Source of the DNA: Candidatus Saccharimonadales bacterium
GTDB taxonomy: Bacteria; Patescibacteriota; Saccharimonadia; Saccharimonadales; UBA10212
Reading direction: 5' to 3'
DNA length: 39,195 nt
Assembly: GCA_036279215.1 (NCBI GenBank)
Contig: DASUJO010000020.1
Coordinates: 1 to 39,195 of the forward strand
Position numbers and translations under genes: made by a program. How positions within the stretch are numbered: the stretch's first letter is position 1; the number at the start of each line of letters is the position of its first letter. Shown piece by piece: positions 316 through 16,568 of this stretch. Below the pieces are notes generated by a model. That model did no database searches, was not told where the DNA came from, and worked only from the letters and a program-made list of their open reading frames with translations.

Positions 316-2922
316 CTATCTAAGGCGGATAGTGTGTTCTTGATCGCTAACGGCCTGAGGGCTGTGTTGGTTAACAGCAGCCTGATGCTGCATATCAGCC
401 GTAGATTTTCGGCGGCTGCGCCGGCGCCTTCTCTTTTTTGCCGGAGTTTCCGGTCTGGTGTTGGGCGATAATGAGCGCAGCAGGCCGGCGGCGGCTTTGC
501 CTGCTTTTTCATTATTAACCGGCTTGGTTTGAGGCTTAGTTGGCTGCGGGGGTTTTTGCGGCTGATTCTGCGGTTTATTCTGCTGGCCGCTGTACGCTGA
601 CGCCTTATTGGCTGCCGTATGTATGATTTTTTCAATATCGGCGCGCTGGCGGCTGTACAGGCGGCGCGACTGCTCGACGATTCTTGGCGTAAGGTCTTCA
701 ACCGGCTGCGGTAAATTTAGTGTTTTGGCGGAAAACGCCGGGGCTTTTTCGCCTTCAATCGTCATGCTGACCACAAAGTGGCGGTTGTGCTGCTGTATCA
801 GGTCGGCCGACTCAAACTGCGGTTCAAAATACTTCTGCAAAAACGGCGAATCGTCAGGACTGACGCGGAAGCTCACAATTGTGCCGACATTTCCGAATAC
901 GGCGTCGCGGACGGGTTGTTCCATTTGGGCGATGTACTGGTTGGCGATAGTCAAATTAAGGGCATATTTGCGGGCTTCACTAAGAATTACTGCGAAGCTG
1001 TCGGTGGCAAAGTTCTGGAACTCGTCGACGTACAAGTAGAATTGCCGGCGCTCGTGTTCCGGCACGTCTGCACGGCTCATAGCCGCCAGCTGGATCTTGG
1101 TAACCATCATTGCGCCTAAAATCCCTGCGTTATCTTCGCCAAGCAGCCCGCGGCTCAAATTTACTATAAGTATTTTGCCCTCGTCCATGATTTGGCGGAT
1201 GTTAAATGTACTTTTTGGCTGGCCGATAATATTACGCACCATCGGGTTAGCCGTAAACGCCCCGACTTTGTTGAGTACCGGCGCGATTGCCTCTGTGGCG
1301 AACTTATCATTCCAGGCGGCGAACTCATTAACCCAGAAGTTTCTGACCACCGGATCATCGATGTGGCTAATAACTTCTTGCCTGAAAGGTTTTTCAGTCA
1401 GCATCCTGGTAATATCAAGCAGCGTGGAATCCGGGTAGTCCAGTAGCGCCAGCAATGTATACCGAAGTATATATTCCAACCGTGGCCCCCAGCTGTCGGC
1501 AAATAAACGTTTAAGTACGCCGACCATCTCTGAGCTTATATGCCCCTTCAGTGTCGGGTCTATGACTTCAAGAGGATTAAAACCGATAGGAAATTCCCTG
1601 TCGGCCGGATTAAAATAAACGACGTCTTCCAGGCGGCGTTCGGGTATAAATTTTAATACGCTTTGGGCGTAGTCGCCGTGCGGGTCAATCACCGCGAATC
1701 CCTGGTTCCAGTAAATATCAGAAAGCGTCAGAAGTTCCAGCGAACCGGTCTTCCCTGTCCCGGTCTGACCGAGTATATAAACATGCCTGCCACGGTCTCC
1801 CCTGTAAATTCCAAATATGGTGTTGTCGCCGCGGAAGTTAGTAACGCCAAACAAACTTATAGCCGATTCATGGCCAGGCTGTGCTATAGGTACGTTGGCC
1901 GGCGGTTCGGCGGTTTTTACCGTTGCCCAGACAATATTTGGCGTTTCTACAGAGGTATGCGGCAAGTGGAATAAGCTGGCCAACTCTTCAATATTCAGGA
2001 TATAACCGCTATCGATGAAAAAGCGCGTTTGGTACTCCAGCTGTTTATCCCTGTCAAAACTGGCGCCCTTGGCGCTGAAACCATTCAAATTGGTGGTATT
2101 AAACTGCTTAAAAGCGCCAACCAGCGCCTGCATGCGAAGCCTGGCGGTGTGCTGATCGTGGCCTGCGTATAAGAACCTGACTTTTACCTGGTAGCCAAGC
2201 TTGGTGCTTTTTTGTTCAATCGCCGCAATCCGGCTTTTATCGCGCTCGGACAGCTCGGTTTCTGTCTTGCCGCCTTCGCCGGGTACTGGCGGCCTGGCCA
2301 GTGCAGCAAACGCCTGGGCGGCGTAACTTACCAGTTCCCCGCTGCCGCCTGACAGGATGCCTTGTCGGTTTCGGATACGGCTGACAACTTTAGCGGCTTT
2401 ACGGTGCCAATCATCCGGAATTGGCCGGGCCATAATTTGAATCCACATTTCTTCGTCTTCTTTATCAAGTTTAGCCAGTGTGGCGGTTATGGCAGCCAGC
2501 GGGTCTACTTCGAAACTCGGAAAAGTTTTAATCGGAATTGTCTCGTTGTCAGACAGAGTAAGCTCGGCGCTGTGTACAACTGTCTGCCGCAGATGGCGGT
2601 CGGCGTAATCGTGGTCCTGTTCATATATATGGACAGTCGGATACTGGGCATATATTTGCCCCTCCACGAATGCCTGAAGGTGCTTAGGAGTCCAGATATA
2701 AAAGCGTATCCTTTGGCCGATAGCGACAACCTCCAGGCTGATATGCTCCTGCAAGGTGCCACTAAGTTTAAGTTCTTTTTTGGGACGCAGAATACCGTGC
2801 AAGGCAGCCAGCATCTGTTCGGCAGCCAGCTCTTTCTTGTCATTCGTACGCGGCACCTCCAACATTAAAAGAATGTGGTCGTGCGCCGCCTCGACGATTT
2901 TACGCCTACCCAATAAAGCCAT
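316..2922 (-). CDS. VirD4/TraD/TrwB-like type IV coupling-protein-family P-loop ATPase; soluble (no obvious N-terminal TM); basic Q/P/K/R-rich C-terminal tail
   Basis: 868-aa ORF. Walker A 'GQTGTGKTG', 'AVIDPHGDY', Walker-B-like 'FYLYVDEFQNF' and 'ARKYALNLTIANQYIAQ' are typical of TraD/TrwB/VirD4 hexameric ATPases. The tail reads 'QQNKPQNQPQKPPQPTKPQTKP...AKKRRRRRSRRK'. Confidence 0.65.
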   Translation of the reverse strand: MALLGRRKIVEAAHDHILLMLEVPRTNDKKELAAEQMLAALHGILRPKKELKLSGTLQEHISLEVVAIGQRIRFYIWTPKHLQAFVEGQIYAQYPTVHIYEQDHDYADRHLRQTVVHSAELTLSDNETIPIKTFPSFEVDPLAAITATLAKLDKEDEEMWIQIMARPIPDDWHRKAAKVVSRIRNRQGILSGGSGELVSYAAQAFAALARPPVPGEGGKTETELSERDKSRIAAIEQKSTKLGYQVKVRFLYAGHDQHTARLRMQALVGAFKQFNTTNLNGFSAKGASFDRDKQLEYQTRFFIDSGYILNIEELASLFHLPHTSVETPNIVWATVKTAEPPANVPIAQPGHESAISLFGVTNFRGDNTIFGIYRGDRGRHVYILGQTGTGKTGSLELLTLSDIYWNQGFAVIDPHGDYAQSVLKFIPERRLEDVVYFNPADREFPIGFNPLEVIDPTLKGHISSEMVGVLKRLFADSWGPRLEYILRYTLLALLDYPDSTLLDITRMLTEKPFRQEVISHIDDPVVRNFWVNEFAAWNDKFATEAIAPVLNKVGAFTANPMVRNIIGQPKSTFNIRQIMDEGKILIVNLSRGLLGEDNAGILGAMMVTKIQLAAMSRADVPEHERRQFYLYVDEFQNFATDSFAVILSEARKYALNLTIANQYIAQMEQPVRDAVFGNVGTIVSFRVSPDDSPFLQKYFEPQFESADLIQQHNRHFVVSMTIEGEKAPAFSAKTLNLPQPVEDLTPRIVEQSRRLYSRQRADIEKIIHTAANKASAYSGQQNKPQNQPQKPPQPTKPQTKPVNNEKAGKAAAGLLRSLSPNTRPETPAKKRRRRRSRRKSTADMQHQAAVNQHSPQAVSDQEHTIRLR

Positions 2923-3016
2923 TACTTAACCATTATACATCTAGAACCGGTTGAATTACGGTTTATGGACTAAGAATTATGGATGTACTCCGCCATAATT
3001 TTTATTTCTTGATTTT

Positions 3017-4051
3017 TTATTCGGCTAAAGCGTAGGTAGCTTTGGCGACGCGTTTGAACTGCGGCTTGCCCTGCAGATTCAGAAGAATGGTGGTTTCCTT
3101 AACGTGGCGGCTTTTGAGCACGCGGCGGACGATCTCATCACGGTGCAGCGGCCCGCCTTCTTTTCGCAATACCTCGGCGATAACATCCGCGACCGTACCT
3201 TTTTTATAACCCCATTCCTTAAGAGCATAAATACCCCGCCCTATCAGGACAAAACGGGAGTCTTTAATCAATTCGTTGTGAATCGCCTGGGTTGTAACAT
3301 TCTTTCGTTTAAAATCGCTTTTCTTGATTGCTTCAGCTATTTCCGAAAAATGCATCGGTTTCTTGTTGTCATGGAGTATCACGTAAATCTTGTCGCGGAT
3401 ATTCTTGGGATTAACCATCGGCCACCTAACCAAGCCCCACCGGCCGTGCAGGTTGGCGATGTTTTTGGATATTCCGGCCAGCGCCTCGACGTTCTTGGCG
3501 TCTTCATTGCCTACCTGTTTTGCCACAGTCTCAATGTCGGTAGGTTCGCCGATTTTTTTGATGCATTCGACTATTTTTTCGACCTGTTCTCGGATTTGCT
3601 TCTCAGAGTGCTTGGCGGCTAAGCCAACGGCATGGAAGTAATGGTCATTATCTTCTATGACAGCCAGGCCCGGGCTTAAGTGAGCTAAAAACGCAACCCG
3701 CGATTGGTCAATCTTGGCGTTTTTATTAGGAAACTTTTGCGCCAATTCGCTGGTACGCGCGACATGCCCCATCTGTGATAGATGGCCGGAAAGCTGGCTC
3801 TCTACTTTTTGTATGTGGGGCAATTCCTTGCCGGTTGATTTAAGCTTTGTGATAACGGCTTTTTCCAGTTGCCTGACCCGCTCGCGGGTAATCCCCAGCA
3901 GTTCACCGATTTGCTCAAGTGTTTCCTTTCGGTCATAAAGGCCAAAACGGCGGGAAATTATCTCCCTTTCGCGCTCGCGGTCAATAGTATTCAGAACGTC
4001 TTTAATGACGTCATCAAGCTTTACCTGTTCAGCAGTACCGGCATCATCCAT
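3017..4051 (-). CDS. Sigma-70 region-4 HTH protein with C-terminal HARE-HTH domain (DNA-binding or RNAP-associated regulator candidate)
   Basis: 344-aa ORF. N-terminal 'RRFGLYDRKETLEQIGELLGITRERVRQLEKAVITKL' matches the sigma-70 region 4 HTH pattern. C-terminal 'KPMHFSEIAEAIKK...IHNELIKDSRFVLIGRGIYALKEWGY' matches the HARE-HTH pattern of RpoE/delta-type proteins. Confidence 0.6.
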   Translation of the reverse strand: MDDAGTAEQVKLDDVIKDVLNTIDREREREIISRRFGLYDRKETLEQIGELLGITRERVRQLEKAVITKLKSTGKELPHIQKVESQLSGHLSQMGHVARTSELAQKFPNKNAKIDQSRVAFLAHLSPGLAVIEDNDHYFHAVGLAAKHSEKQIREQVEKIVECIKKIGEPTDIETVAKQVGNEDAKNVEALAGISKNIANLHGRWGLVRWPMVNPKNIRDKIYVILHDNKKPMHFSEIAEAIKKSDFKRKNVTTQAIHNELIKDSRFVLIGRGIYALKEWGYKKGTVADVIAEVLRKEGGPLHRDEIVRRVLKSRHVKETTILLNLQGKPQFKRVAKATYALAE

Positions 4052-4086
4052 GCTTTTTCTACACTATTTTACAGTTTACTAAACTT

Positions 4087-4115
4087 ATTATAAAATTATT
4101 AATTTTAAAAGTCAA
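4087..4115 (-). promoter_or_regulatory. Sigma-70-type promoter TTGACT-17-TATAAT for the sigma-r4/HARE-HTH gene
   Basis: On the minus strand, TTGACT (4115-4110), a 17-nt spacer, and TATAAT (4092-4087), about 35 nt upstream of the ATG at 4051. Confidence 0.6.
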
Positions 4116-4329
4116 CTCGCTTCCCGAACAAATTTATTGTATCACCGATTAGACTGTTTTGCACAATCCGTTTATGTCTAATTTACTACGGAAGTTGTTT
4201 TACAGGGAGAGAAATATGTGGAAAAACGCTCTTTCTTACCCTGCCAAACACATCGAAAACCGGATGTCGATCGGCCAAATAGATCAAGCTCCTTCTGTTT
4301 TCTCAAGTGTTTGCCAGCTTAAGATTTCG

Positions 4330-6633
4330 CTACTGGCCGGAGGGCTTGCGGTTGGGGAAACGGCGTGGCCTAGAAGGAGATTTTTCTAATAAGTCTTTGG
4401 CCTTGGTCTCGGTGATTTTTTCCGGAGCCATATCTTTTGGCACCCGCGCATTCCTTTTCCCGTCGGTAATATATGGCCCATATGGCCCTCTTAATACCTT
4501 TATCGTACCAAAATCGGCTATGTTTTTGGCTTTGGCTGCAGCGTCCGCTTCTTTTATTATCTTGCGGGCTTCGGTTTCACTGATTCTTAGCGGGTCATGA
4601 TTTTTGATGCTGATGAACCGCTTGCCTATCTTTATATAAGGGCCATATCGGCCAATGTCCGCCGTGATTAGCTCGCCGCTGCCAGTTGTGCCCACTTCGC
4701 GCGGCAGATTGAACATCGGCAGCGCCTGTTCCAGTGTTACTTCGTCTAATTCGGTATTTTCCGGCAGCGGAGCGAATTTCGGTTTTGGCGCCGATTTATC
4801 TTTTGCATCCGGAGTCTCGCCAAGCTGCAGAACCGGCCCGTAGCGCCCGTATCGGGCGTATACCGGTTCTTTGGTTTTAGGATCCTTGCCTAATTTCCTT
4901 ACTTGCAATGTTTCTGAACGGCTGGCTTTTTGCGATTTATCTATCAGTGGGTGGAAGTGCTTATAAAATTGTTCAAGCATGGCCTGCCATTCGGTTTTTC
5001 CCATAGCGATATCGTCCAAGTCATCTTCGGCTTTGGCGGTGAATTTGTAATCCATGATGCTGGAAAAATACTTCATTAGAAAATCGGTGACGATTTCGCC
5101 CAGCTGTGTCGGGATAAGCTTGGCGCGGTCGGCGCCTACGACCGTGTCTACTTGCTTTTGGGTGATTTTACCGGCTTCCAAGATAATCTGGCGGGTTTGC
5201 CGGGTCTCGCCTTCAAGGTCTTTCTTCTCAATATATCCCCTGTCCTGAATCGTCCCGATAGTCGGTGCGTATGTGCTGGGCCGTCCGATTCCAAGTTCTT
5301 CGAGCTGCTTGACCAAGCTGGCTTCGCCGTAGCGCGCGGCTGCCCGGCTGAAAGTTTCTTCAGCCAGCATCGAGCGCAGCTTTAGCGTATCGCCCTCGTC
5401 TACCGGCGGCAGAATTTTATCTTCCTTGCCGCCGCCATACACCTTTAAAAAGCCGTCAAAGCGCAAAACCTCGCCGCGGGCGATGAAACGCTCGTCACGG
5501 CCGCTTACACTGATAGAAACTTCGGTCCTGTCGATCTGCGCCGCTGCCATCTGGCTGGCAAGCATGCGCTTCCTGATTAAATCGTAAAGCTTGTGTTCTT
5601 GGGCATCAGCTCCGGCTTTGGTTTTTCTGACATCTGTCGGCCTGATTGCTTCGTGTGCTTCCTGCGCCGATTGGCTCTTTGTTTTGTATTGCCGCGTTTG
5701 CGAGTACTTCTGGCCAAACTCAGAGACTATGTAATCATTAGCCGCCTTAACGGCTATAGGCGAGAGGTGGGTGCTATCGGTTCGCATATAAGTAATGTGG
5801 CCGTGTTCGTAAAGCCGCTGGGCCAGACGCATTGTCTGCCTGACGCCATAACCCAGCCGCCGGGCTGCTTCCTGCTGCATAGTGCTGGTCGTAAAAGGCG
5901 CTGAGGGCGAGCGGCTACCTGGTTTTTGCTCGACGGATGCCACCTTAAATTCGGCTTTCTTGGCGTGCTCAAGGTATGATTTTGCGTCGGCGCCCTGCTT
6001 TATACGGCGTTCAAGCTCGGCGGGCAGTTCTCCGCCTTTCGCATCAAATACCGCTGTGACTTTGAATTCACTGGCCGGTTTATGGGCTTGGATTTCTCTT
6101 TCACGCTCAACGATCAATCGGACTGCCACACTCTGTACCCGGCCGGCCGATAAGCCGGCTCTGACCTTTTTCCATAGTACCGGGCTAAGCTCGTAGCCGA
6201 CCAGGCGGTCTAGCACCCTTCTGGCTTGCTGGGCATCAACCAGTTTGGTATCTACAAGACGCGGATTGGATATAGCGCTGGTGATAGCCGGCTTGGTGAT
6301 TTCGTGGAATACGATGCGGGGCGTTTTGGCAGTATTCAGTCCCAGAACATTACAGACATGCCAGGCAATGGCTTCGCCTTCCCTGTCTTCATCAGTCGCT
6401 AGCCAGATTTCTTTGCCTTTGGCGGCTTTTTTTAGGCTTTTAACAACATCCTCTTTATCAGGCGATATCTGGTACTGCGGCTCAAAATTCTTTTTAATAT
6501 CAACTCCCAGCTGCTTTTTCGGCAGGTCGCGGATATGCCCGAAAGTACTTATAGTGTCGTACTCACTACCAAGGAACTGCGCCAGTGTTCTGGCTTTGGC
6601 CGGGCTCTCGACAATCACAAGGTTTTTCGCCAT
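4330..6633 (-). CDS. topA: DNA topoisomerase I
   Basis: Toprim start 'MAKNLVIVESPAKA'; active-site region 'GHITYMRTDS'; three C-terminal 'GRYGPY'-type repeats ('YGRYGPVLQLG', 'IGRYGPYIKIG', 'RGPYGPYITDG'). I prefer the ATG at 6633 over the in-frame GTG at 6642 used by the ORF track. Confidence 0.95.
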   Translation of the reverse strand: MAKNLVIVESPAKARTLAQFLGSEYDTISTFGHIRDLPKKQLGVDIKKNFEPQYQISPDKEDVVKSLKKAAKGKEIWLATDEDREGEAIAWHVCNVLGLNTAKTPRIVFHEITKPAITSAISNPRLVDTKLVDAQQARRVLDRLVGYELSPVLWKKVRAGLSAGRVQSVAVRLIVEREREIQAHKPASEFKVTAVFDAKGGELPAELERRIKQGADAKSYLEHAKKAEFKVASVEQKPGSRSPSAPFTTSTMQQEAARRLGYGVRQTMRLAQRLYEHGHITYMRTDSTHLSPIAVKAANDYIVSEFGQKYSQTRQYKTKSQSAQEAHEAIRPTDVRKTKAGADAQEHKLYDLIRKRMLASQMAAAQIDRTEVSISVSGRDERFIARGEVLRFDGFLKVYGGGKEDKILPPVDEGDTLKLRSMLAEETFSRAAARYGEASLVKQLEELGIGRPSTYAPTIGTIQDRGYIEKKDLEGETRQTRQIILEAGKITQKQVDTVVGADRAKLIPTQLGEIVTDFLMKYFSSIMDYKFTAKAEDDLDDIAMGKTEWQAMLEQFYKHFHPLIDKSQKASRSETLQVRKLGKDPKTKEPVYARYGRYGPVLQLGETPDAKDKSAPKPKFAPLPENTELDEVTLEQALPMFNLPREVGTTGSGELITADIGRYGPYIKIGKRFISIKNHDPLRISETEARKIIKEADAAAKAKNIADFGTIKVLRGPYGPYITDGKRNARVPKDMAPEKITETKAKDLLEKSPSRPRRFPNRKPSGQ

Positions 6634-6673
6634 ATAACGCACATAGTAGCATGAATGGCCGGCCGGCCGGCCG

Positions 6674-7537
6674 TTATCTAATTATCCACTGCCCGCCGCC
6701 TGCCGGGCGAATAAGCCCGCGCAGTTCCAAATCGGTCAATGCCGAGCTGACTTCTGCCGCCGGCAGGCTGCTGGCGGCTACCAGTTCTTCCTGCCCTGCG
6801 GTGCCGCCGGCAATCAGCTCGAAGAGTTTCTGCTGGCGGCCGGAACCGGCAATTCTGCTGATGGTTTTTTCTTTGGCCGGCTTGATTCCGAGCGCGAAGA
6901 AAATGTCATCGGCCGCCGTAACCGGCACGGCGCCGCTTTTTATAAGGTTATTACAGCCTTCCGATGCCGGGCTTGTAATATTACCCGGCAGGGCCATAAC
7001 AGTTTTACCCTGCTCAAGCGCGAACCTGGCAGTATGCAGGCTGCCGCTATTGCGGGCGGCTTCGGTTATCACCAGGACATCGGCTAAAGCCGCGACAATC
7101 CGATTGCGGGCGATAAAGTTTACCTTATGGATTTCCGCGCCGGCTGGATATTCGCTAACTAACGCGCCGCCGCCCTTTATAATCCGGCTGGCAAGCCAGA
7201 GGTTGGCTGCCGGCGTAATCTTATCGAGAGGTGTCGGCAGTACGGCGACTGTTAAACCGCCTGCCTCCAAAGCGGCCCTGTGAGAAAAAGAGTCAATGCC
7301 AAAAGCCAGCCCGCTGACTATAACTGCGCCGGCGCTGGCAATTTCGCCAGCTAAACGGTCTGTAATTGTCCTGCCGTAGGCGGTTGCTTTGCGGCTGCCG
7401 ACAAAAGCCACCTTTGGCCGGGCTAATATCATATCCGGTGATGCGCCCCGCCAGAACAAATTTGCTGGGCGTGGCTCCAGAGAACCTAATAACCTTGAAA
7501 CTTCTTGCCGGCTAAGCTTAAGAGTATTGACGTTCAT
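6674..7537 (-). CDS. dprA: DNA-processing protein DprA (transformation/recombination mediator)
   Basis: 287-aa ORF with 'VAFVGSRKATAYG', 'SGLAFGIDSFSHRAALEAGG' and 'ARNRIVAAL' (Rossmann-like DprA core). It has a C-terminal winged-helix-like tail. The dprA-topA synteny is common. Confidence 0.9.
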   Translation of the reverse strand: MNVNTLKLSRQEVSRLLGSLEPRPANLFWRGASPDMILARPKVAFVGSRKATAYGRTITDRLAGEIASAGAVIVSGLAFGIDSFSHRAALEAGGLTVAVLPTPLDKITPAANLWLASRIIKGGGALVSEYPAGAEIHKVNFIARNRIVAALADVLVITEAARNSGSLHTARFALEQGKTVMALPGNITSPASEGCNNLIKSGAVPVTAADDIFFALGIKPAKEKTISRIAGSGRQQKLFELIAGGTAGQEELVAASSLPAAEVSSALTDLELRGLIRPAGGGQWIIR

Positions 7538-7556
7538 AGCATAATATTATTTATTA

Positions 7557-7585
7557 TTGACTCTAAACCATTTTTTTGCTAAAAT
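7557..7585 (+). promoter_or_regulatory. Near-consensus plus-strand promoter TTGACT-17-TAAAAT with TGn extended -10, overlapped by a 6-3-6 palindrome
   Basis: TTGACT at 7557-7562, a 17-nt spacer, TG at 7577-7578 and TAAAAT at 7580-7585. The palindrome TTGCTA-AAA-TAGCAA spans 7576-7590. There is no plus-strand CDS downstream. Confidence 0.55.
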
Positions 7586-7591
7586 AGCAAT

Positions 7592-8017
7592 CCGTAAGCA
7601 TTATTTGATGCTTACCGCACCTTATACCCCCAACTAACATTATGTTAGATTGTCTAAGATAAGGCGTAAGTTGTACCCTCCACTTGCACCCTGCCTGCCC
7701 AATTTTGAGCTTTGGTAAGTAGTATATGCGGGCGATAACCGCCAGACAAATGCTAAAGTTTAAAAAGTTCAGAATTGGGCGGGAATCTTAGACAAACTAA
7801 CCCCTTTAACTCTACGGTCCCATTCAATGTGGGTAGGCTAGCGTGCTCACGCACGCGTCCCCGCTGCTTGCGGCGGGGCGGCGCTTAACCTTCGCATATT
7901 CGCAGGTTCATAGCCAGCTTTGCCGATGGTGGGGTTGAAGGGTGTATTTGAGGGATGAGCAGGTCTCGTCCCCTGAAAGAGTCTCTGGCGGTGCCCACCC
8001 CCTCCAGAGGCTCTTTT
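7592..8017 (+). ncRNA. Candidate ~425-nt structured ncRNA of unknown family
   Basis: The dprA-pth gap has no credible ORF. Hand-traced helices: 7594-7600/7609-7615, 7645-7660/7785-7800, 7694-7713/7764-7783 (20 contiguous pairs, 3 G-U), 7841-7846/7851-7856, 7859-7866/7871-7878 (GCUUGC tetraloop) and 7952-7959/7965-7972. All six wobble pairs are G-U only on the plus strand. The region is bounded by a promoter and a terminator. Confidence 0.5.
7976..8017 (+). terminator. Intrinsic terminator of the candidate ncRNA
   Basis: The stem 7978-7988/8004-8014 has 11 bp including one G-U that is valid only on the plus strand. It is followed by TTTT (8014-8017), and the A-tract at 7976-7977 can extend the pairing. 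Confidence 0.5.
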
Positions 8018-8027
8018 AGTTTGGCGC

Positions 8028-8663
8028 CTATAAAACTGTGCGCGTTTCGTGGTGCAGTTTGTCGCCGAAGATATATTCGGTAATCAGCGCGTTTGCTTCT
8101 CGCAGAACTTTTGGAAGTTCGGCCCTTTCTTCTTTGCTGAATTTCTTAAGCACATACGCGGCAGAATCGCTATTTTTTGACAGTTCCGAATTGATGCCTA
8201 TACGCAGGCGGCCAAAATCCCCGCCTATATGTTCTATCAGCGATTTGACACCGTTGTGTCCGGCATCGCTGCCGCCAATTCGGGTTCTGAGCTGTCCGAA
8301 AGGGATGGCTAATTCGTCGAATACGGCCAGTGTCTGCGGGTTATAAATCCGGTAAAAATGCTGAACGGTTTCAGCCGACTCCCCACTTAGGTTCATTTGT
8401 GTCGCCGGTTTGCAAAGAATAACCCGGCTGCTGCCCATAGCCGATATCGCAATGTCGCACTTAAGGTCTTTCTTTTTAGTCCATGCCGGGAAATCATTCT
8501 GCTGTGCGAAGTAGTCTAAAGCCATAAAGCCAGCATTGTGCCTGGTAGCGCTAAACTTTTTACCGGGATTACCAAGACCGATAATCAGCAAATCCTTAGT
8601 TGCGCCGATAGTATAGGCGGGCGCGCTGCTTGTGACGTACGGCTTTTTTTGTATCAGCCCCAT
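8028..8663 (-). CDS. pth: Peptidyl-tRNA hydrolase
   Basis: 'LIIGLGNPGKKFSATRHNAGFMALD' and 'GSDAGHNGVKS' are canonical Pth motifs. The start lies 9 nt after the der stop. Confidence 0.93.
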   Translation of the reverse strand: MGLIQKKPYVTSSAPAYTIGATKDLLIIGLGNPGKKFSATRHNAGFMALDYFAQQNDFPAWTKKKDLKCDIAISAMGSSRVILCKPATQMNLSGESAETVQHFYRIYNPQTLAVFDELAIPFGQLRTRIGGSDAGHNGVKSLIEHIGGDFGRLRIGINSELSKNSDSAAYVLKKFSKEERAELPKVLREANALITEYIFGDKLHHETRTVL

Positions 8664-8672
8664 AAGCTAATT

Positions 8673-9989
8673 CTACCCTTCCCTCTTATCTATAAACCAG
8701 AATTTTAGCGGCGTACCCGACAGCGGCCAGCGTTCACGGAATCGCCTTTCAAGATAACGCTTATAGCTCCAATGCAGGAATTTTGTGTGCGCGCCGAAGA
8801 TTTTGAAACTGGGCATGTCTATATCGTCTTCCTGAACCATGTAATTTAGCTTTGGCAGCATTCTGCGGGATGGTGGCGGCTCTTTACTGTCTACGGTATC
8901 TCTCAGCCATCGGTTAAGTTCGGCCGTTTGGAATTTTGTGCGGCGGGCTGAATCAATCTCCAGCGCCAGCTCAAGTAACTTCGTAACGTTCAACCCGCTT
9001 ACCGCGCTGGTAAAGACCAGCGGCGCCCACGGCGCGAACGGGAAGGCTGCTGACGTCTGCGCGCCCAAGCCCTCCCTTGTAGTATCTGATTCTACTGCAT
9101 CCCATTTATTGAGGACAATAATAAGGCCTTTGCCGGCGTCTTTTATCATACCGGCTATTTTTTGGTCCAACTGGGTATTTGGCTCGGCTGAATCCATTAC
9201 CAGCAAGCATAAATCCGACTCTTCTATGGCTGCCATTGAACGCAGCACACTGAAGTGCTCCACTCCCCGCTCAATCCGGCCGGGGCGGCGTATCCCGGCG
9301 GTATCGGCAATTTCGATATCGCGCGACTTATAACGCAGTCCAAGCCGGTTGACGTCCCTGGTTGTTCCGGCTTGGGGCGCAACCAGCGCCTGCTGCTTTG
9401 CCGCCAGGCTGTTGAACAGCGATGATTTACCGACGTTGGGCCGCCCCAAAATACTTATACGTATCAGGTTGCTCGGCTTAGGTATTTTTGCGTCCGGCAG
9501 GTTTTTGGCTACGGCATTTAATAATTCGGTTATACCGGTTTTTTGCGTGGTGCTGGTGCCAATTATGACCTTTATGCCTAGAGCCCGCCACGCGTCCAGA
9601 CCGGCTTTGCGGTTCTTATCCATCTTATTAACTACCAGCAGAACTTGTTTGCGGCTTTTTAAGGCCATTTTGGCGACGCGCCTGTCTTCGGCGGTTATCG
9701 GTACGCTGGCTTCGGCGACTACCAATATCACGCTGGCAGAATCAGCGGCTTCCTGAATCTGCTCCTGGATACCAAGCTCAAACTCATCTTCGGCTCCTTT
9801 CATGCCGGCTGTATCAACCAGCCAAAAATCTTTGCCGCCGGCGGTGGCCTTGGCAGTTATCCTATCCCTTGTCGTCCCCGGCTCCATAGCCACTATTGCT
9901 TCGCGACGCCCGATAAGTGCGTTAAAAAGCGAAGATTTGCCGACATTGGCGCGGCCAACTATTGCCACGATTGGTACCTTTTGGCTCAT
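8673..9989 (-). CDS. der: Ribosome-biogenesis GTPase Der (EngA), tandem G domains
   Basis: Two P-loops, 'IVGRANVGKSSLFN' and 'ILGRPNVGKSSLFN', with 'DTAG' after each and 'NKMD'/'NKWD' motifs, plus a KH-like C-terminus. Confidence 0.95.
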   Translation of the reverse strand: MSQKVPIVAIVGRANVGKSSLFNALIGRREAIVAMEPGTTRDRITAKATAGGKDFWLVDTAGMKGAEDEFELGIQEQIQEAADSASVILVVAEASVPITAEDRRVAKMALKSRKQVLLVVNKMDKNRKAGLDAWRALGIKVIIGTSTTQKTGITELLNAVAKNLPDAKIPKPSNLIRISILGRPNVGKSSLFNSLAAKQQALVAPQAGTTRDVNRLGLRYKSRDIEIADTAGIRRPGRIERGVEHFSVLRSMAAIEESDLCLLVMDSAEPNTQLDQKIAGMIKDAGKGLIIVLNKWDAVESDTTREGLGAQTSAAFPFAPWAPLVFTSAVSGLNVTKLLELALEIDSARRTKFQTAELNRWLRDTVDSKEPPPSRRMLPKLNYMVQEDDIDMPSFKIFGAHTKFLHWSYKRYLERRFRERWPLSGTPLKFWFIDKREG

Positions 9990-12284: not shown

Positions 12285-13529
12285 TCAATCTATGTAGTCT
12301 TTTATGCTGCCGAAGGCGATGCGCTGCAGTATGACGCCCTCCATGCCCTGCATAGCGGCCGGTATGACCGTGTATTCGCCCCAGCGGTCATTAATCGAGT
12401 CCAGCGCGTCCGATAGCAGCCTGGAGTCGCACCGAGTACCGCCGAAGATGCTGAGCTGCTGCGGGTCAACCGGCCGCAAGCCGTAAACCGAAACCGATAT
12501 ATGCGTTGCCAGGTCGGGCAGATATGCCTCTTCCAGCAGTTTGCCGGCGTGGAAGAATATCTCGTCGTTGGAGTACATGGCGGAACCGGTGCTGCGGCTT
12601 TTAGCCCACCAGTCGCCCGACTGGAAACCCAAAGACAGGTGTATGCCGCGCGCCAGATACCCCTGTTTCCTCATGCGGCGGCCGGCTTTGTAGCACAGCT
12701 TCATCAGCAGCCGCGCCAGCTCGGCCCGGTCGCGCGTCTTGACCTTGATGGCGTAATTGTGGCCGATGGATTTTCTGGCGAAGCGCCGGTCATCCACCTC
12801 GAATCCCCTGAGACGGGCGTACCACTGGTCACCGACGATACTCTTAAAAACCCGCCGCTTCAGCTTGTCCTGCGAGGCGGCCAAAAATTGCAGCGGCGTA
12901 AAGATTCCGGCTTCGTTCAGCCGGGCTTCGTAGCGGTAATTTATACCGGTCAGGTCGGTCAGCGACAGGCGCCCGTATATGGAAAGCGCGTTGGAGGCGT
13001 CCATTACGTTCAGGCCGTCGGGTTTGTTCAGGCCGGCGGCCGTTTTGGCCCAGAAGCGGCTGGCGCCGATGCCTACGTTGACGGTCACGTACGAGCCGAC
13101 GCGGTCTTTGATTTTGTGCTTTATCTCGTAGCCTATATCTATCAGGTCCCTGCCCTCGCGGACAGCCGGGCTGCCGGCAAAATCAATCACGAACTCATCT
13201 ATGCTTTTGTCGTACACGCTGCTGGTGTATTCGTCTACCACTTCTTTGAACAGCCGGTGGGCGGCGATGTATTTGTGCGGGTCGGGCATCAGCACGATAA
13301 CGCCTGGGTCTAGAGCCCGGGCCTCGCCGACGTTGACGCCCAGCTTGATGCCCTTGGCTTTGGCTTCGTAGCTGCTGGCTATCACCATCCCCCTAGGCGT
13401 ATCGTAAGCCGCCACCGCTACCGGCTTGTTGCGGTACAGCGGGTTAGCTTGCTGCTCCACAATGGCAAAACAGCTGTTTAGGTCTATGTGCATTACCAGC
13501 GGACAGGATTTGTTAAGTAGATAATCCAT
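12285..13529 (-). CDS. Y-family (translesion) DNA polymerase, UmuC/YqjW-like
   Basis: 'MHIDLNSCFAIVEQ', 'VAVAAYDTPRGMVIASSYEAKAKGIK' (UmuC-style 'NNDGCVIA' position) and 'IDEFVIDF', followed by little-finger-like C-terminal sequence. The ATG at 13529 overlaps the upstream 88-aa ORF by 17 nt. An alternative ATG at 13493 ('MHIDLNS') is possible. Confidence 0.85.
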   Translation of the reverse strand: MDYLLNKSCPLVMHIDLNSCFAIVEQQANPLYRNKPVAVAAYDTPRGMVIASSYEAKAKGIKLGVNVGEARALDPGVIVLMPDPHKYIAAHRLFKEVVDEYTSSVYDKSIDEFVIDFAGSPAVREGRDLIDIGYEIKHKIKDRVGSYVTVNVGIGASRFWAKTAAGLNKPDGLNVMDASNALSIYGRLSLTDLTGINYRYEARLNEAGIFTPLQFLAASQDKLKRRVFKSIVGDQWYARLRGFEVDDRRFARKSIGHNYAIKVKTRDRAELARLLMKLCYKAGRRMRKQGYLARGIHLSLGFQSGDWWAKSRSTGSAMYSNDEIFFHAGKLLEEAYLPDLATHISVSVYGLRPVDPQQLSIFGGTRCDSRLLSDALDSINDRWGEYTVIPAAMQGMEGVILQRIAFGSIKDYID

Positions 13530-13779
13530 CGCTGACGACTTCCAAGACCCAAGTGAGCTCTTTGGTGTTGAAGTTCAGCCTGAAGGCCAGCGTTTCATCC
13601 TTGTCTACCACCTCGAATATGTGGTGCCAGGTATCGCCGTGCTTATACTTGTGCGGGAACCCCAGCTCGCCTATCACGTAATCGCGGTTTTTCCAGCGTA
13701 TGGTGTAAGGCATGGTGATGTTCCGCCGGGAGCTGTAATAGCTGACCACGCTGACCTTTTGGTTTATCTTTTCGCGCAT
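13513..13779 (-). CDS. Orphan 88-aa protein in the UmuD/YolD position upstream of the polymerase; paralog of 14669-14932
   Basis: It has a strong SD (AAAGGAGGAACAAAAAATG). It is translationally coupled to the polymerase. It shares 'VxVVxYY', a 'P...(I/V).(W/F)' segment and a C-terminal 'F..(D)......L.F......W.L' pattern with the 87-aa ORF. I recognise no family. Confidence 0.7.
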   Translation of the reverse strand: MREKINQKVSVVSYYSSRRNITMPYTIRWKNRDYVIGELGFPHKYKHGDTWHHIFEVVDKDETLAFRLNFNTKELTWVLEVVSDGLST

Positions 13780-13874
13780 TTTTTGTTCCTCCTTTAAAAT
13801 ATATTTATGGTTTCCACGCCTGCCGCATTTAGGCTAGTTTTGGTGCGACGCTGCGGAGCGCAAGCGAGGCGTAT

Positions 13875-14672
13875 ATGAAATACGGCGAGCACGGACCGCA
13901 AAGCGGCAAGCCGGAAATAGCCAAAAAGCCAGCGGCGCGGCCAGCTGTGCTGGACGGCAGGCTGACTGGTGCGGAAGGTGTGGTTGATGATGGGTGCGGG
14001 CGGTATGTACTTCAGGTAAAAGCCAAAGACCTGGCCAAGCGGTACAACCTGGCCAAGGCGCCGGACGGCATCCGCGAAAACTTCAACGTGGCCCCGGGCC
14101 AGACGCTTCCGGTGGTGATAGAACCGGACGAAGGCGGACGGCGCGTAGAGATGATGAGATGGGGCCTGGTGCCGGCGTGGGCCAAAGACCTTAAGATTGG
14201 CTACAAGCTCATCAACGCCCGCGACGACACCATCTTTGACAAGCCGATGTGGCGCGGCGTGGTGCTGAAAAAGCGCGCCCTGATACCGGCCACCGGATTT
14301 TACGAATGGCAGAAGCCGGCCGAGCCCAAAGCGCGCAAGCAGCCCTTTTATATACATCCTAAGCAGGCCGGTATATTCTCTTTTGCCGGCGTCTGGAGCG
14401 GCTGGGCCGACGCCGAAGGCAAGCAGTGGCAGACCTACTCGATCATCACCACCGAGCCGAACAAAGAGATGTCCAAGGTCCATAATCGCATGCCGGTCAT
14501 CCTGGATCCCGATGACGAGGCGGCCTGGCTGGACCCCGCCAAGACCGCCCGCCGGGACATCGAGCCGTTTCTGCGCCCCTATCATGACGGCGGCCTGGAA
14601 GTCTTCCGCGTAAGCGACGAAGTCAATTCGCCAACCAATAACGATAAGCATCTAATCAGCCCTGCCGCTTAA
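13875..14672 (+). CDS. SRAP (SOS-response-associated peptidase; YedK/HMCES family) abasic-site processing protein with a non-canonical N-terminal extension
   Basis: 'CGRY' (Cys codon 13995-13997), 'RWGLVPAW', 'INARDDTI', 'RALIPATGFYEWQ' and 'HNRMPVILDP' are SRAP hallmarks. The only in-frame starts are the ATG at 13875 (GAGG 5 nt upstream) and the GTG at 13980, so the start is uncertain. Confidence 0.8.
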   Translation: MKYGEHGPQSGKPEIAKKPAARPAVLDGRLTGAEGVVDDGCGRYVLQVKAKDLAKRYNLAKAPDGIRENFNVAPGQTLPVVIEPDEGGRRVEMMRWGLVPAWAKDLKIGYKLINARDDTIFDKPMWRGVVLKKRALIPATGFYEWQKPAEPKARKQPFYIHPKQAGIFSFAGVWSGWADAEGKQWQTYSIITTEPNKEMSKVHNRMPVILDPDDEAAWLDPAKTARRDIEPFLRPYHDGGLEVFRVSDEVNSPTNNDKHLISPAA

Positions 14673-14932
14673 GCGCCGATTGACAGCAGTTTCCAGCTGG
14701 CGTCGGCGGCGTCAAACTCCAGCTGGTAGCTGGCCTGCCCGTCGCTCATCCGAAACAGCTGGACCTGCCGCCCGGCTTTATTTAGCGGCCGGCGCCGCCC
14801 GTTGTCGGTGAACACTACGCTTCTGCCGTCAAACTCCACCTTTTTGGGGAAGCCCAGCAGACGCCGCCCGGCGTTTTTAAAGTAATAGCCCACGACGTTC
14901 ACCTCTTTGTTAAGACCTGTAACTTTTTCCAT
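14669..14932 (-). CDS. Orphan 87-aa protein, paralog of 13513-13779
   Basis: Its SD (GCAGGAGGAACTCAAAATG) shares the 9-mer AGGAGGAAC with its paralog. Shared protein motifs include 'VNVVGYY' vs 'VSVVSYY' and 'YQLEFDAADASWKLL' vs 'FRLNFNTKELTWVLE'. It is GC-rich like the rest of the block. Confidence 0.65.
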   Translation of the reverse strand: MEKVTGLNKEVNVVGYYFKNAGRRLLGFPKKVEFDGRSVVFTDNGRRRPLNKAGRQVQLFRMSDGQASYQLEFDAADASWKLLSIGA

Positions 14933-15127
14933 TTTGAGTTCCTCCTGCTGAAATCTGGGTTAATTAAAAGAGAACCGATTCACCTTGGGGGTGTCAGCAG
15001 ACGGATTTGGCGCCCGGCTACCAGCTAAGAACGATGACCGTCTATCACGGTTCCATGACTGGGAGCGTAAGTGTATGTAAGTCTGCGAGGAGGAATCCTA
15101 GCGGAAGCCCTCACATGGCTAATGCTT

Positions 15128-15157
15128 ATTATAGGCCTGCCAGCGCGTACTTTTCAA
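15128..15157 (-). promoter_or_regulatory. Near-consensus promoter TTGAAA-18-TATAAT driving the 87-aa ORF with a ~190-nt leader
   Basis: On the minus strand, TTGAAA (15157-15152), an 18-nt spacer, and TATAAT (15133-15128). The ATG is at 14932. Confidence 0.5.
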
Positions 15158-15199
15158 GCATTAAATTCAGACACCGCTATGGTTTTTCACCTCTGTTTT

Positions 15200-15208
15200 T
15201 GCTAAAAT
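15200..15208 (+). promoter_or_regulatory. Extended -10 element TGcTAAAAT upstream of tRNA-Glu
   Basis: The 13-mer TTTTTGCTAAAAT is the same as at the 7557-7585 promoter. It lies about 128 nt upstream of the tRNA 5' end. The -35 is weak. Confidence 0.35.
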
Positions 15209-15335
15209 TATATCCGTTCTAATTACAAAAACGCGGCATCTGGTCGAGCCATGTTTTTGAGAGGAGGAAGCGAGCCGAGGCTGCAAATAAGCAAATTATT
15301 CTTGTTTACGAAAGCCGTTGCCTCGATTCCGACGC

Positions 15336-15410
15336 GGTCCCATCGTCTAGTGGTTAGGACACTGGGTTCTCATCCCAGCAACAGGGGTTCGACTCCCCTT
15401 GGGATCACCA
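15336..15410 (+). tRNA. tRNA-Glu (anticodon CTC), CCA encoded
   Basis: Hand-folded cloverleaf: acceptor GGTCCCA/TGGGATC (one G-U), D arm GTCT..GGAC, anticodon stem CTGGG/CCCAG with loop TTCTCAT, T arm AGGGG-TTCGACT-CCCCT, then A-CCA. It closely parallels E. coli tRNA-Glu. Confidence 0.9.
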
Positions 15411-16568
15411 CTATTGATTTGATTGTGCGGCCGGCTTCGGCGCGGACCAAGTGACCTGGTTGGTGGCGCCGACAGCTACTAACCAAGTCTGGCCGGCGTC
15501 GAGCGCGATGGTTTTGCCGGCGCTATCCGTGAACGAGAATTGGGATGAGCGGTTTTTCTTGTGCCAGACGCCTTTAGTGACATTGCCGTCCTGGAAAACG
15601 TACATTACACCTTTACCGTAAGTATTGTACCGGCTGTGGTAGCCGTCTGACTCTATGCCGTAAGGCATCACCAGCGCAACCAGAACCTTAGGATGAATCT
15701 GTTTTGGGTGTTTATCGTTGGGTGAGGCAAGCTGGACGTGCTTAGCGCCTCCCTCGCTGCGGTAATAAGTATTGCTTTTGGCGTCGTATTTATAAGACGA
15801 GTTATAGCTGCCGCTGGATATATTTACATTGATGGTAACCGCTTTTGGCGTAGGCAGCGGCTGATCGTCTTTGCGCTCCCAAGAAGTAAACTTACTATGT
15901 TTATAACCTTTGGATTTATTTAATTTATCCAGGTTCTTAAAGCTTGTGTACATGTTATGCGGCGCGGCTCGTGATGACTGGCGCCAATATGCCCCGGGGT
16001 TAAAGAACTGGTCTAAATCTTTGCCTTTGCTCCTAATTTGTTTAAGGGCTTCCGGGCTGCCGCCCACATGCGCTATGCCGGCGTCAAACGGCGTCGCCCA
16101 GTCTATGTAATAAGGGCGCAGCGATCGCACCGGGCCGACGTATTGCGGCTGAGACTCCTGGAATAAAGACAAGAACCGGGTAATCCCTGCTTCAGCGATA
16201 GCTTCATAAACCACCCCTGCTTCGTTAAGGCCGGATTGCGGCCGGGCATCTAGACTGTTCTCTATCATCACGCCTGTGACCGGCCGCTCGGCCAACGCCG
16301 GGTCCACCTGCATTCCGGTTAACGGCGACGCAACAGTTTTGGGCGGTATCTCATGATGTTCGCCGATGATTACATCAGGTTGCGAATCCGGCTGGATGAG
16401 GGTGAAATAACCCAGGGCTGCGGCGCCGAACAGCAGGAGCGCGGCGCTGATTATTCCAAAACGCAAATTCCGGCTAAGGCCCTTCCACCAATGCTTAAGG
16501 CGCTGCCAGAAGTTCATTTTAAGTTGGTCGCCCGCCCCTTTTGGCGGTTCTTCTATATCTTGGAACAC
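15411..16568 (-). CDS. DUF3048 (YerB-like) membrane-anchored protein
   Basis: N-terminal TM 'FGIISAALLLFGAAALGYFTLI', then 'VMIENSLDARPQSGLNEAGVVYEAIAEAGITRFLSLF' and 'RSLRPYY', typical of DUF3048. The stop abuts the tRNA-Glu 3' end. Confidence 0.75.
   Translation of the reverse strand: MFQDIEEPPKGAGDQLKMNFWQRLKHWWKGLSRNLRFGIISAALLLFGAAALGYFTLIQPDSQPDVIIGEHHEIPPKTVASPLTGMQVDPALAERPVTGVMIENSLDARPQSGLNEAGVVYEAIAEAGITRFLSLFQESQPQYVGPVRSLRPYYIDWATPFDAGIAHVGGSPEALKQIRSKGKDLDQFFNPGAYWRQSSRAAPHNMYTSFKNLDKLNKSKGYKHSKFTSWERKDDQPLPTPKAVTINVNISSGSYNSSYKYDAKSNTYYRSEGGAKHVQLASPNDKHPKQIHPKVLVALVMPYGIESDGYHSRYNTYGKGVMYVFQDGNVTKGVWHKKNRSSQFSFTDSAGKTIALDAGQTWLVAVGATNQVTWSAPKPAAQSNQ

Follow-up and report, generated by a model that had tools for sequence, protein, structure and literature searches.

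ImuB-C, the domain at the C-terminus of ImuB in the ImuA-ImuB-DnaE2 mutasome, was described by Aravind, Anand and Iyer (2013) as a β-rich domain of about 80 residues with a conserved C-terminal tryptophan (PMC3765255). Its standalone form mostly adjoins DinB, often together with LexA and SRAP (PMC3765255), and Geobacter's operon lexA-imuB-C-polY is damage-induced (Timinskas and Venclovas 2019, PMC6511836). A survey from 2026 modelled ImuB-C as a β-barrel of novel fold without PDB relatives, which contacts DnaE2-PHP and ImuA (PMC12926913). Among the mutagenic polymerase systems of bacteria, standalone ImuB-C counts as an established component. Here we consider two small genes, copy A and copy B, which form a cassette with the genes of a Y-family DNA polymerase and an SRAP protein in a Candidatus Saccharimonadales bacterium (GenBank assembly GCA_036279215.1, contig DASUJO010000020.1; the whole analysed stretch of 39,195 nucleotides is called the window). 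We suggest that the family of these small proteins probably belongs, as a strongly diverged branch, to the ImuB-C superfamily (Pfam DUF6504, PF20114).

Both genes are on the minus strand and start with ATG. Copy A, of the A-type subfamily, occupies 13513..13779 and encodes 88 amino acids (aa), and copy B, of the B-type subfamily, occupies 14669..14932 and encodes 87 aa; both are in the list of open reading frames (ORFs) as a preliminary description of this DNA had placed them. The ribosome-binding 9-mer AGGAGGAAC precedes both of them (13785..13793 for A, 14938..14946 for B, minus strand) and ends 5 nt before the ATG in each case; the spacing of 4 nt given earlier for the 87-aa ORF was off by one. 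The first 17 nt of the polymerase gene are shared with copy A, which bears out the proposed translational coupling of one copy, and the two would be translated together. SRAP and copy A stand between copy B and the polymerase, and, as had been noted, copy B converges on SRAP with overlapping stops (4 nt, TTAA). In the comparison of the window with locus L164, a related contig of matching gene order, the ratio of nonsynonymous to synonymous substitution rates (dN/dS) is 0.08 for both A and the polymerase, 0.12 for SRAP and 0.18 for B. Because of these values we read A and B as translated genes under purifying selection.

Profile comparison identifies the two copies as true paralogues. Pairwise BLASTP of A and B gives a weak match (E 0.006) limited to the N-terminal 40 residues, and hhalign of profile A against profile B (34 A-type and 13 B-type homologues) gives a probability of 98.6% and E 1e-15 over 80 columns. 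The homology proposed at the outset is thereby confirmed; the alignment over the full length holds between profiles and not between the two sequences taken pairwise. AlphaFold2 predicts a small all-β domain, as anticipated, with seven strands in identical order and no helix in both models, at a predicted local distance difference test score of 90.3 for A and 91.7 for B. Both models are structured from residue 2–4 onward and have no long disordered N-terminal arm. A Foldseek search of the PDB found nothing significant for either model (best E 0.08), the listed hits having query-normalised template modelling (TM) scores of at most 0.44 and the top-ranked ones less than 0.4; a sequence search for relatives of solved structure brought up nothing above noise (ribosomal S4 and INCENP, E > 0.6). 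Conservation among 75 diverse members is at least 90% at W77 and extends to P24 and L79, R67 is nearly invariant in an alignment of 42 sequences (A3), and the family has conserved Arg/Lys positions. Copy B is devoid of the C-terminal tail of 15–20 residues typical of most B-type proteins.

The family is large and confined to a single broad lineage as far as its members bear names. An exhaustive search with a joint hidden Markov model (HMM) profile found 577 representative clusters, defined at 50% identity, with E ≤ 1e-3, of which 177 also reach E ≤ 1e-10. What had been called an orphan family thus comprises at least 577 representative clusters and is Patescibacteria-wide. The homologue sets gathered with copy A (44 close homologues, 88 aa in length) and copy B (13) come, wherever an organism is named, from Saccharibacteria, Saccharimonadales, ‘Patescibacteria group’ or Gottesmanbacteria. 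Members are about 85–105 residues long; the homologues without exception bear the annotation ‘hypothetical protein’ and are free of precomputed Pfam domains.

A pointer to function is the gene neighbourhood, which we compared over 59 genome loci found with the A-type profile and 80 metagenome loci found with the B-type profile, 77 of the latter having enough downstream sequence. The A-type gene is directly upstream of a Y-family polymerase gene, usually overlapping it, in all 59 loci, and so is the B-type gene in 77 of 77; the start-stop overlap of the small gene with the polymerase gene is near universal in both sets. This agrees with the position of a small accessory subunit in a translesion-polymerase cassette assumed in the preliminary description. 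SRAP is found divergently upstream of the A-type gene in 25 of the 59 loci. In Gottesmanbacteria and another lineage of the Candidate Phyla Radiation (CPR) an S24 protein, an 85–86-aa homologue and the polymerase follow in that order with overlapping genes, and this S24 protein is a full-length match to the LexA equivalog TIGR00498 (122.9 bits, cut-off 110.95). Other members have a divergent SRAP or a DnaQ-like exonuclease ahead of the small gene, followed by the polymerase. The neighbourhood of the family is that of the published lexA-imuB-C-polY and SRAP cassettes, which supports the ImuB-C assignment.

The protein itself also resembles standalone ImuB-C: according to the AlphaFold2 models and the alignments it is a single all-β domain of about 80–100 residues that has no catalytic motif and conserves a C-terminal Trp and basic residues, and its predicted fold is without close PDB relatives in the Foldseek searches of both models. 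DUF6504 is the only recurrent match among 24,736 Pfam families. It is found in 9 of 42 members in a first scan and in 14 of 75 in a second one, always collinear and, with one exception, below the gathering threshold of 24.2 bits. The next family, PFU, drops from 8 of 42 to 2 of 75, and no other family recurs in both scans. The exception is the homologue P0192, which scores 25.4 bits against DUF6504 and is matched by the family profile at 2.5e-12. Pfam DUF6504 is the ImuB-C domain: its model matches the C-terminus of S. meliloti ImuB, and the Prokaryotic Genome Annotation Pipeline (PGAP) names ImuB proteins and C-terminal fragments of ImuB ‘DUF6504 family protein’. When aligned by hhalign with 11 alpha- and betaproteobacterial ImuB C-termini, the family scores 17.6–19.8 (P 0.011–0.023) over 74–87 collinear columns, and the Trp of the N-terminal ‘W-x-G-R’ motif as well as the C-terminal Trp fall on tryptophans of ImuB-C. 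Only 2 of 150 column-permuted controls reach this score.

Several observations weigh against the assignment. Even at E ≤ 10 the window proteins A and B match no Pfam or NCBIfam model, DUF6504 included. Family consensus sequences score 12.7–16.6 bits against DUF6504 (cut-off 24.2), and the B-type consensus does not match it. The matches to DUF6504 and ImuB-C that exist are below or barely at threshold and come mainly from the N-terminal half, the hhalign probability against fused ImuB-C is only 2–4%, and hmmsearch of S. meliloti ImuB with the family HMMs returned nothing. Signs of damage induction are not seen in the cassette either: no LexA or RecA gene is among the window ORFs scanned (several window ORFs were left unscanned), the promoter regions of the cassette hold no LexA box GAAC-N4-GTTC with up to one mismatch, the total count of such boxes being that expected by chance, and its two upstream regions have no inverted repeats. 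Finally, binding of A to the polymerase, RecA or DnaE is entirely inferred.

The weak scores, the low hhalign probability and the unmatched B-type consensus are what one would see if the family were an independent, CPR-specific one of novel fold, analogous as small subunit of a polymerase, and not homologous, to ImuB-C, YolD and UmuD'. The likeness to DUF6504 would then be convergence or noise around a shared β-hairpin, ‘P-x-x-I-x-W-x-G-R-x-Y-x-V’. We consider this rather unlikely. It does not explain why a single Pfam family recurs in constant register and is passed at gathering score by one member, nor the outcome of the permutation test, and the LexA/SRAP/DinB-like context, the size, the β content, the C-terminal Trp and the lack of PDB relatives are all published hallmarks of ImuB-C. 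Two further searches were without yield: tblastn of the DUF6504-leaning member P0184 against plasmids gave only noise, and the imuB-C gene of D. deserti plasmid 1, sought by its coordinates, was not found in the interval 121–317 kb.

If the family is a branch of ImuB-C, it has its own features. Its sequences have diverged too far for Pfam or NCBIfam to recognise them, the motifs ‘GPERI..EWW’ and ‘RDY’ of proteobacterial ImuB-C are absent from it, its hosts are Patescibacteria, no DnaE2 or ImuA is nearby, a cassette may hold two copies, and its two subfamilies co-vary with two subfamilies of polymerase. From the C-terminal domain of mutasomal ImuB, a β-barrel to which its predicted all-β domain would be homologous, it differs in being a separate polypeptide. 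In ImuB the domain has the role of a protein-protein adaptor and is attached to a Y-family fold with clamp-binding and RecA-NT motifs; the window polymerase, by comparison, keeps its catalytic residues (DLN...SIDE), and DnaE2 and ImuA, the mycobacterial partners, are not in the window neighbourhood.

The small genes had earlier been placed in a ‘UmuD/YolD slot’. Small genes that precede a Y-family polymerase gene and share its transcript are indeed known from YolD/YqjX (PF08863) with UvrX/YqjW and from UmuD' with UmuC, where the polymerase likewise combines a RecA-NT-like motif with a conserved tail, and all these small proteins are probably regulatory subunits. The members of our family could accordingly replace UmuD or YolD in function, with an N-terminal arm inserted into the polymerase and activation mediated by RecA, as in Pol V or YqjW-YqjX; the equal position, the coupling to a polymerase with RecA-NT-like motif and conserved tail, and the published parallel (PMC6511836, PMC12926913) would fit this. 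Of all the explanations weighed here it is the one we find hardest to credit. Neither the window proteins nor the two homologue sets (42 and 75) match YolD at E ≤ 10 or E ≤ 1, and UmuD/LexA S24 (PF00717) membership fails in the same way: the window proteins have no Pfam or NCBIfam UmuD/LexA match and none of the 117 scanned members matches S24, in keeping with the early remark that the signatures of both families are missing. The published cores are SH3-like with a flexible N-terminal arm, whereas the models of A and B are seven-strand domains structured from the N-terminus, without an S24 peptidase dyad; the Foldseek search, which has no significant PDB match, included solved UmuD' structures; and in Gottesmanbacteria a separate LexA-matching S24 protein coexists with the small gene. 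Because the 117 members lack profile matches, the models lack a disordered arm and LexA coexists, we exclude YolD and UmuD as families. The position is most likely an ‘ImuB-C slot’.

The partner of copy A in the window is a Y-family DNA polymerase of 414 aa (12285..13529, minus strand) with the Pfam domains IMS (1.4e-28) and IMS_C (3e-15); NCBIfam Pol IV models match it below their cut-offs. In its translation we read the motifs ‘HIDLNSCFAIVEQ’, ‘DLN’ and ‘SIDE’ and the clamp motif ‘QQLSIF’; Pfam adds a weak DUF4113/RecA-NT-like match (E 0.06, residues 372–393). The two domains, the acidic residues, the clamp motif and the DUF4113-like motif place it among the Y-family polymerases with a RecA-NT motif, and it is apparently catalytically active, judging from these residues. 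Its C-terminus reads ‘...ILQRIAFGSIKDYID’, and this tail is conserved across loci.

Comparison of the polymerase C-termini in loci L001-L059 (A-coupled) and L084-L163 (B-coupled) reveals two classes. The A-coupled polymerases have the canonical clamp motif QLGLFD, then ‘LA.AaD..NdrYGEFT.vPA.MANMqd.IlkRvAFG’, and end in ILKRVAFG. The B-coupled ones have ‘Q.SLLEE’ in place of the canonical QLxLF, with the consensus ‘nQ.SlLeEVNrEvWLTeAvD.IN.qfGefTvTfAsSl.AK..vKQKIPFGsTRYFELL’, and end in ‘KQKIPFGSTRYFELL’. Thus, the type of small protein clearly co-varies with the C-terminal tail of the polymerase, and each of the two subfamilies is normally paired with its own polymerase subfamily, which fits a small subunit bound to that tail. 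The polymerase of the window is of the A-coupled class; against it A-coupled polymerases score a median of 506 bits and B-coupled ones 329 bits. Therefore copy A should be its cognate, working partner, and copy B is without a polymerase of the B class; in the window no Y-family polymerase besides this one was detected.

The co-variation of tails and subfamilies could also belong to a CPR-specific subunit of novel fold that is not ImuB-C, evolved in at least two lineages along with the polymerase tails, with the stranded copy B re-used to partner SRAP or as a heterodimer with A. We regard this as improbable. If the re-use of B were true, crosslinking of apurinic/apyrimidinic sites by SRAP would be physically linked to translesion synthesis.

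Copy B has the look of a relic and not of a recent duplicate. Of the duplication in a compact cassette that was first proposed, the presence of two copies stands, and a new duplication gives way to two old subfamilies, each having its own polymerases (59 of 59 and 77 of 77 loci) with different tails. No SRAP or A-type gene is near the B-type gene in the 80 metagenome loci. In two long Saccharibacteria contigs that share the synteny of the window (GluRS-DUF3048-...-HisK-response regulator), B is followed directly by a polymerase. The simplest history would be that an ancestral operon of B and its polymerase occupied the same chromosomal site (GluRS-DUF3048-[B-pol]-HisK-RR, RR being the response regulator), and that a module of SRAP, A and polymerase replaced the polymerase of this operon while B was kept. 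Since B is retained and still under purifying selection, it probably keeps some function; its binding partner might be A, the polymerase, SRAP or a polymerase whose gene is elsewhere.

The arrangement is not restricted to the window. About 15 of the 59 A-type loci hold one more paralogue, which precedes the A-type gene in tandem or, as in the window, is found past SRAP, and the order B-SRAP-A-polymerase is also found in L164/L165, the contig of P0001, L001, L013, L014/L015 and L058. We also note a third, more divergent type of paralogue in L003-L005, L009, L013, L020, L031, L049 and L058, with scores of 48–74 bits to the A2 profile and the ending ‘...W(T/I/K)L(V/I/L)...’; it is placed in tandem directly upstream of the A-type gene, and past SRAP in L013 and L058. 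Therefore, two-copy cassettes arose with different second copies.

For the assigned ImuB-C-like subunit we suggest the following mechanism. The small protein would be a non-catalytic accessory subunit of the Y-family translesion polymerase. Translational coupling would yield A and the polymerase in stoichiometric amounts, and A would then bind the polymerase, probably at the conserved tail that follows the RecA-NT-like motif. By analogy with ImuB-C in the modelled mutasome, A might act as an adaptor or regulator towards RecA and/or the replicative polymerase DnaE. A different role was suggested for ImuB-C by Aravind et al., who proposed binding of DNA or lesions from its conserved basic residues (PMC3765255). 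As the family has conserved Arg/Lys positions too, its members could be small DNA-binding sensors of damage or transcriptional regulators of the cassette, and not subunits bound to the polymerase. To this we assign a low probability: the near-universal start-stop overlap and the co-variation of subfamily and tail point to a stoichiometric protein partner, and AlphaFold modelling puts ImuB-C at protein-protein interfaces (PMC12926913).

If the assignment is true, the standalone ImuB-C system extends to the reduced genomes of the CPR, where the family is invisible to Pfam and PGAP and its copies carry the name ‘hypothetical protein’. A standalone ImuB-C beside a Y-family polymerase, in a cassette with SRAP, is known; the two co-evolving subfamilies and the stranded second copy add a modest variation to it. 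Two types of subunit that go with two types of polymerase tail make a natural experiment, in which the tail is indicated as the binding site. The main gain is a better annotation and a hypothesis of interaction, and the cassette is not a new kind of system.

The SRAP gene between the two copies (YedK/HMCES-type, 13875..14672, plus strand; PF02586 1.1e-72) is divergent from A and convergent with B. Its in-frame starts are ATG 13875, which gives a leader of 40 aa, and GTG 13980, which gives the leader MVDDG|CGRY. The codon of the catalytic Cys (13995–13997, ‘CGRY’) is preceded by GGG, which is no start codon. From a comparison of leaders across loci, GTG 13980 is likely the real start; the 40-aa leader is identical in L164 at 39 of 40 positions. 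About 20 of 24 SRAP ORFs beside A-type genes have the canonical start M|CGRY, L012 among them, where the motif search had matched a non-canonical site. The window has in common with L001 (MKIVDDG|C), L035 (MVIIDDA|C) and L040 (MKFDDG|C) a short leader ending in DDG or DDA. As the chemistry of YedK/HMCES depends on an N-terminal Cys, the subgroup with such leaders may require (self-)processing. Antisense to SRAP runs a 285-aa ORF (13794..14651, minus strand) and antisense to the polymerase a 270-aa ORF (12501..13313, plus strand); both were treated as shadow ORFs because of their position opposite well-supported genes.

Upstream of copy B the non-coding stretch 14933–15335 (about 400 nt) holds the sole strong promoter-like site. 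This σ70-like candidate, TTGAAA-18-TATAAT (15128..15157, minus strand), is about 200 nt upstream of B and agrees with the consensus at 11 of 12 positions; it comes from a consensus scan, in which the number of sites does not exceed that in shuffled sequences, so that it is a weak candidate. The stretch is bounded by a gene for tRNA-Glu(CTC) at 15336–15410, located between copy B and the DUF3048 gene (15411..16568, minus strand), and this tRNA is the only match of an Rfam scan. At the position of the tRNA the syntenic contigs L060 and L061 have no called gene or a 119-aa ORF.

Two further cases stand somewhat apart. In L079 (2163–4397) a DnaQ-like DEDD 3'-5' exonuclease (RNase_T), an 88-aa member and a Y-family polymerase of 468 aa are encoded by overlapping genes; coupling of a proofreading exonuclease to a translesion polymerase is unusual. 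Further, the best viral match of the model m7d0465c1dcac in the BFVD is A0A8S5PG70, an uncharacterised 100-aa protein of an uncultured siphovirus (TM 0.53, 79 columns, E 0.014, probability 1.00), which may be a phage-borne relative of the predicted fold.

The rest of the window, at 316–9989 and 15411–37739, looks like an ordinary Saccharibacteria chromosome. Besides DUF3048 it includes genes of a TraD/VirD4-like coupling ATPase, a sigma-70 region 4/HARE-HTH protein, topoisomerase I, DprA, GluRS, a PEGA protein, a sortase, an AddA-like helicase-nuclease, ThyA and an FAD oxidase. The genes at 8673..9989 and 8028..8663 resemble those of Der GTPase and peptidyl-tRNA hydrolase, respectively, as suggested by the synteny with L060 and L061 only.

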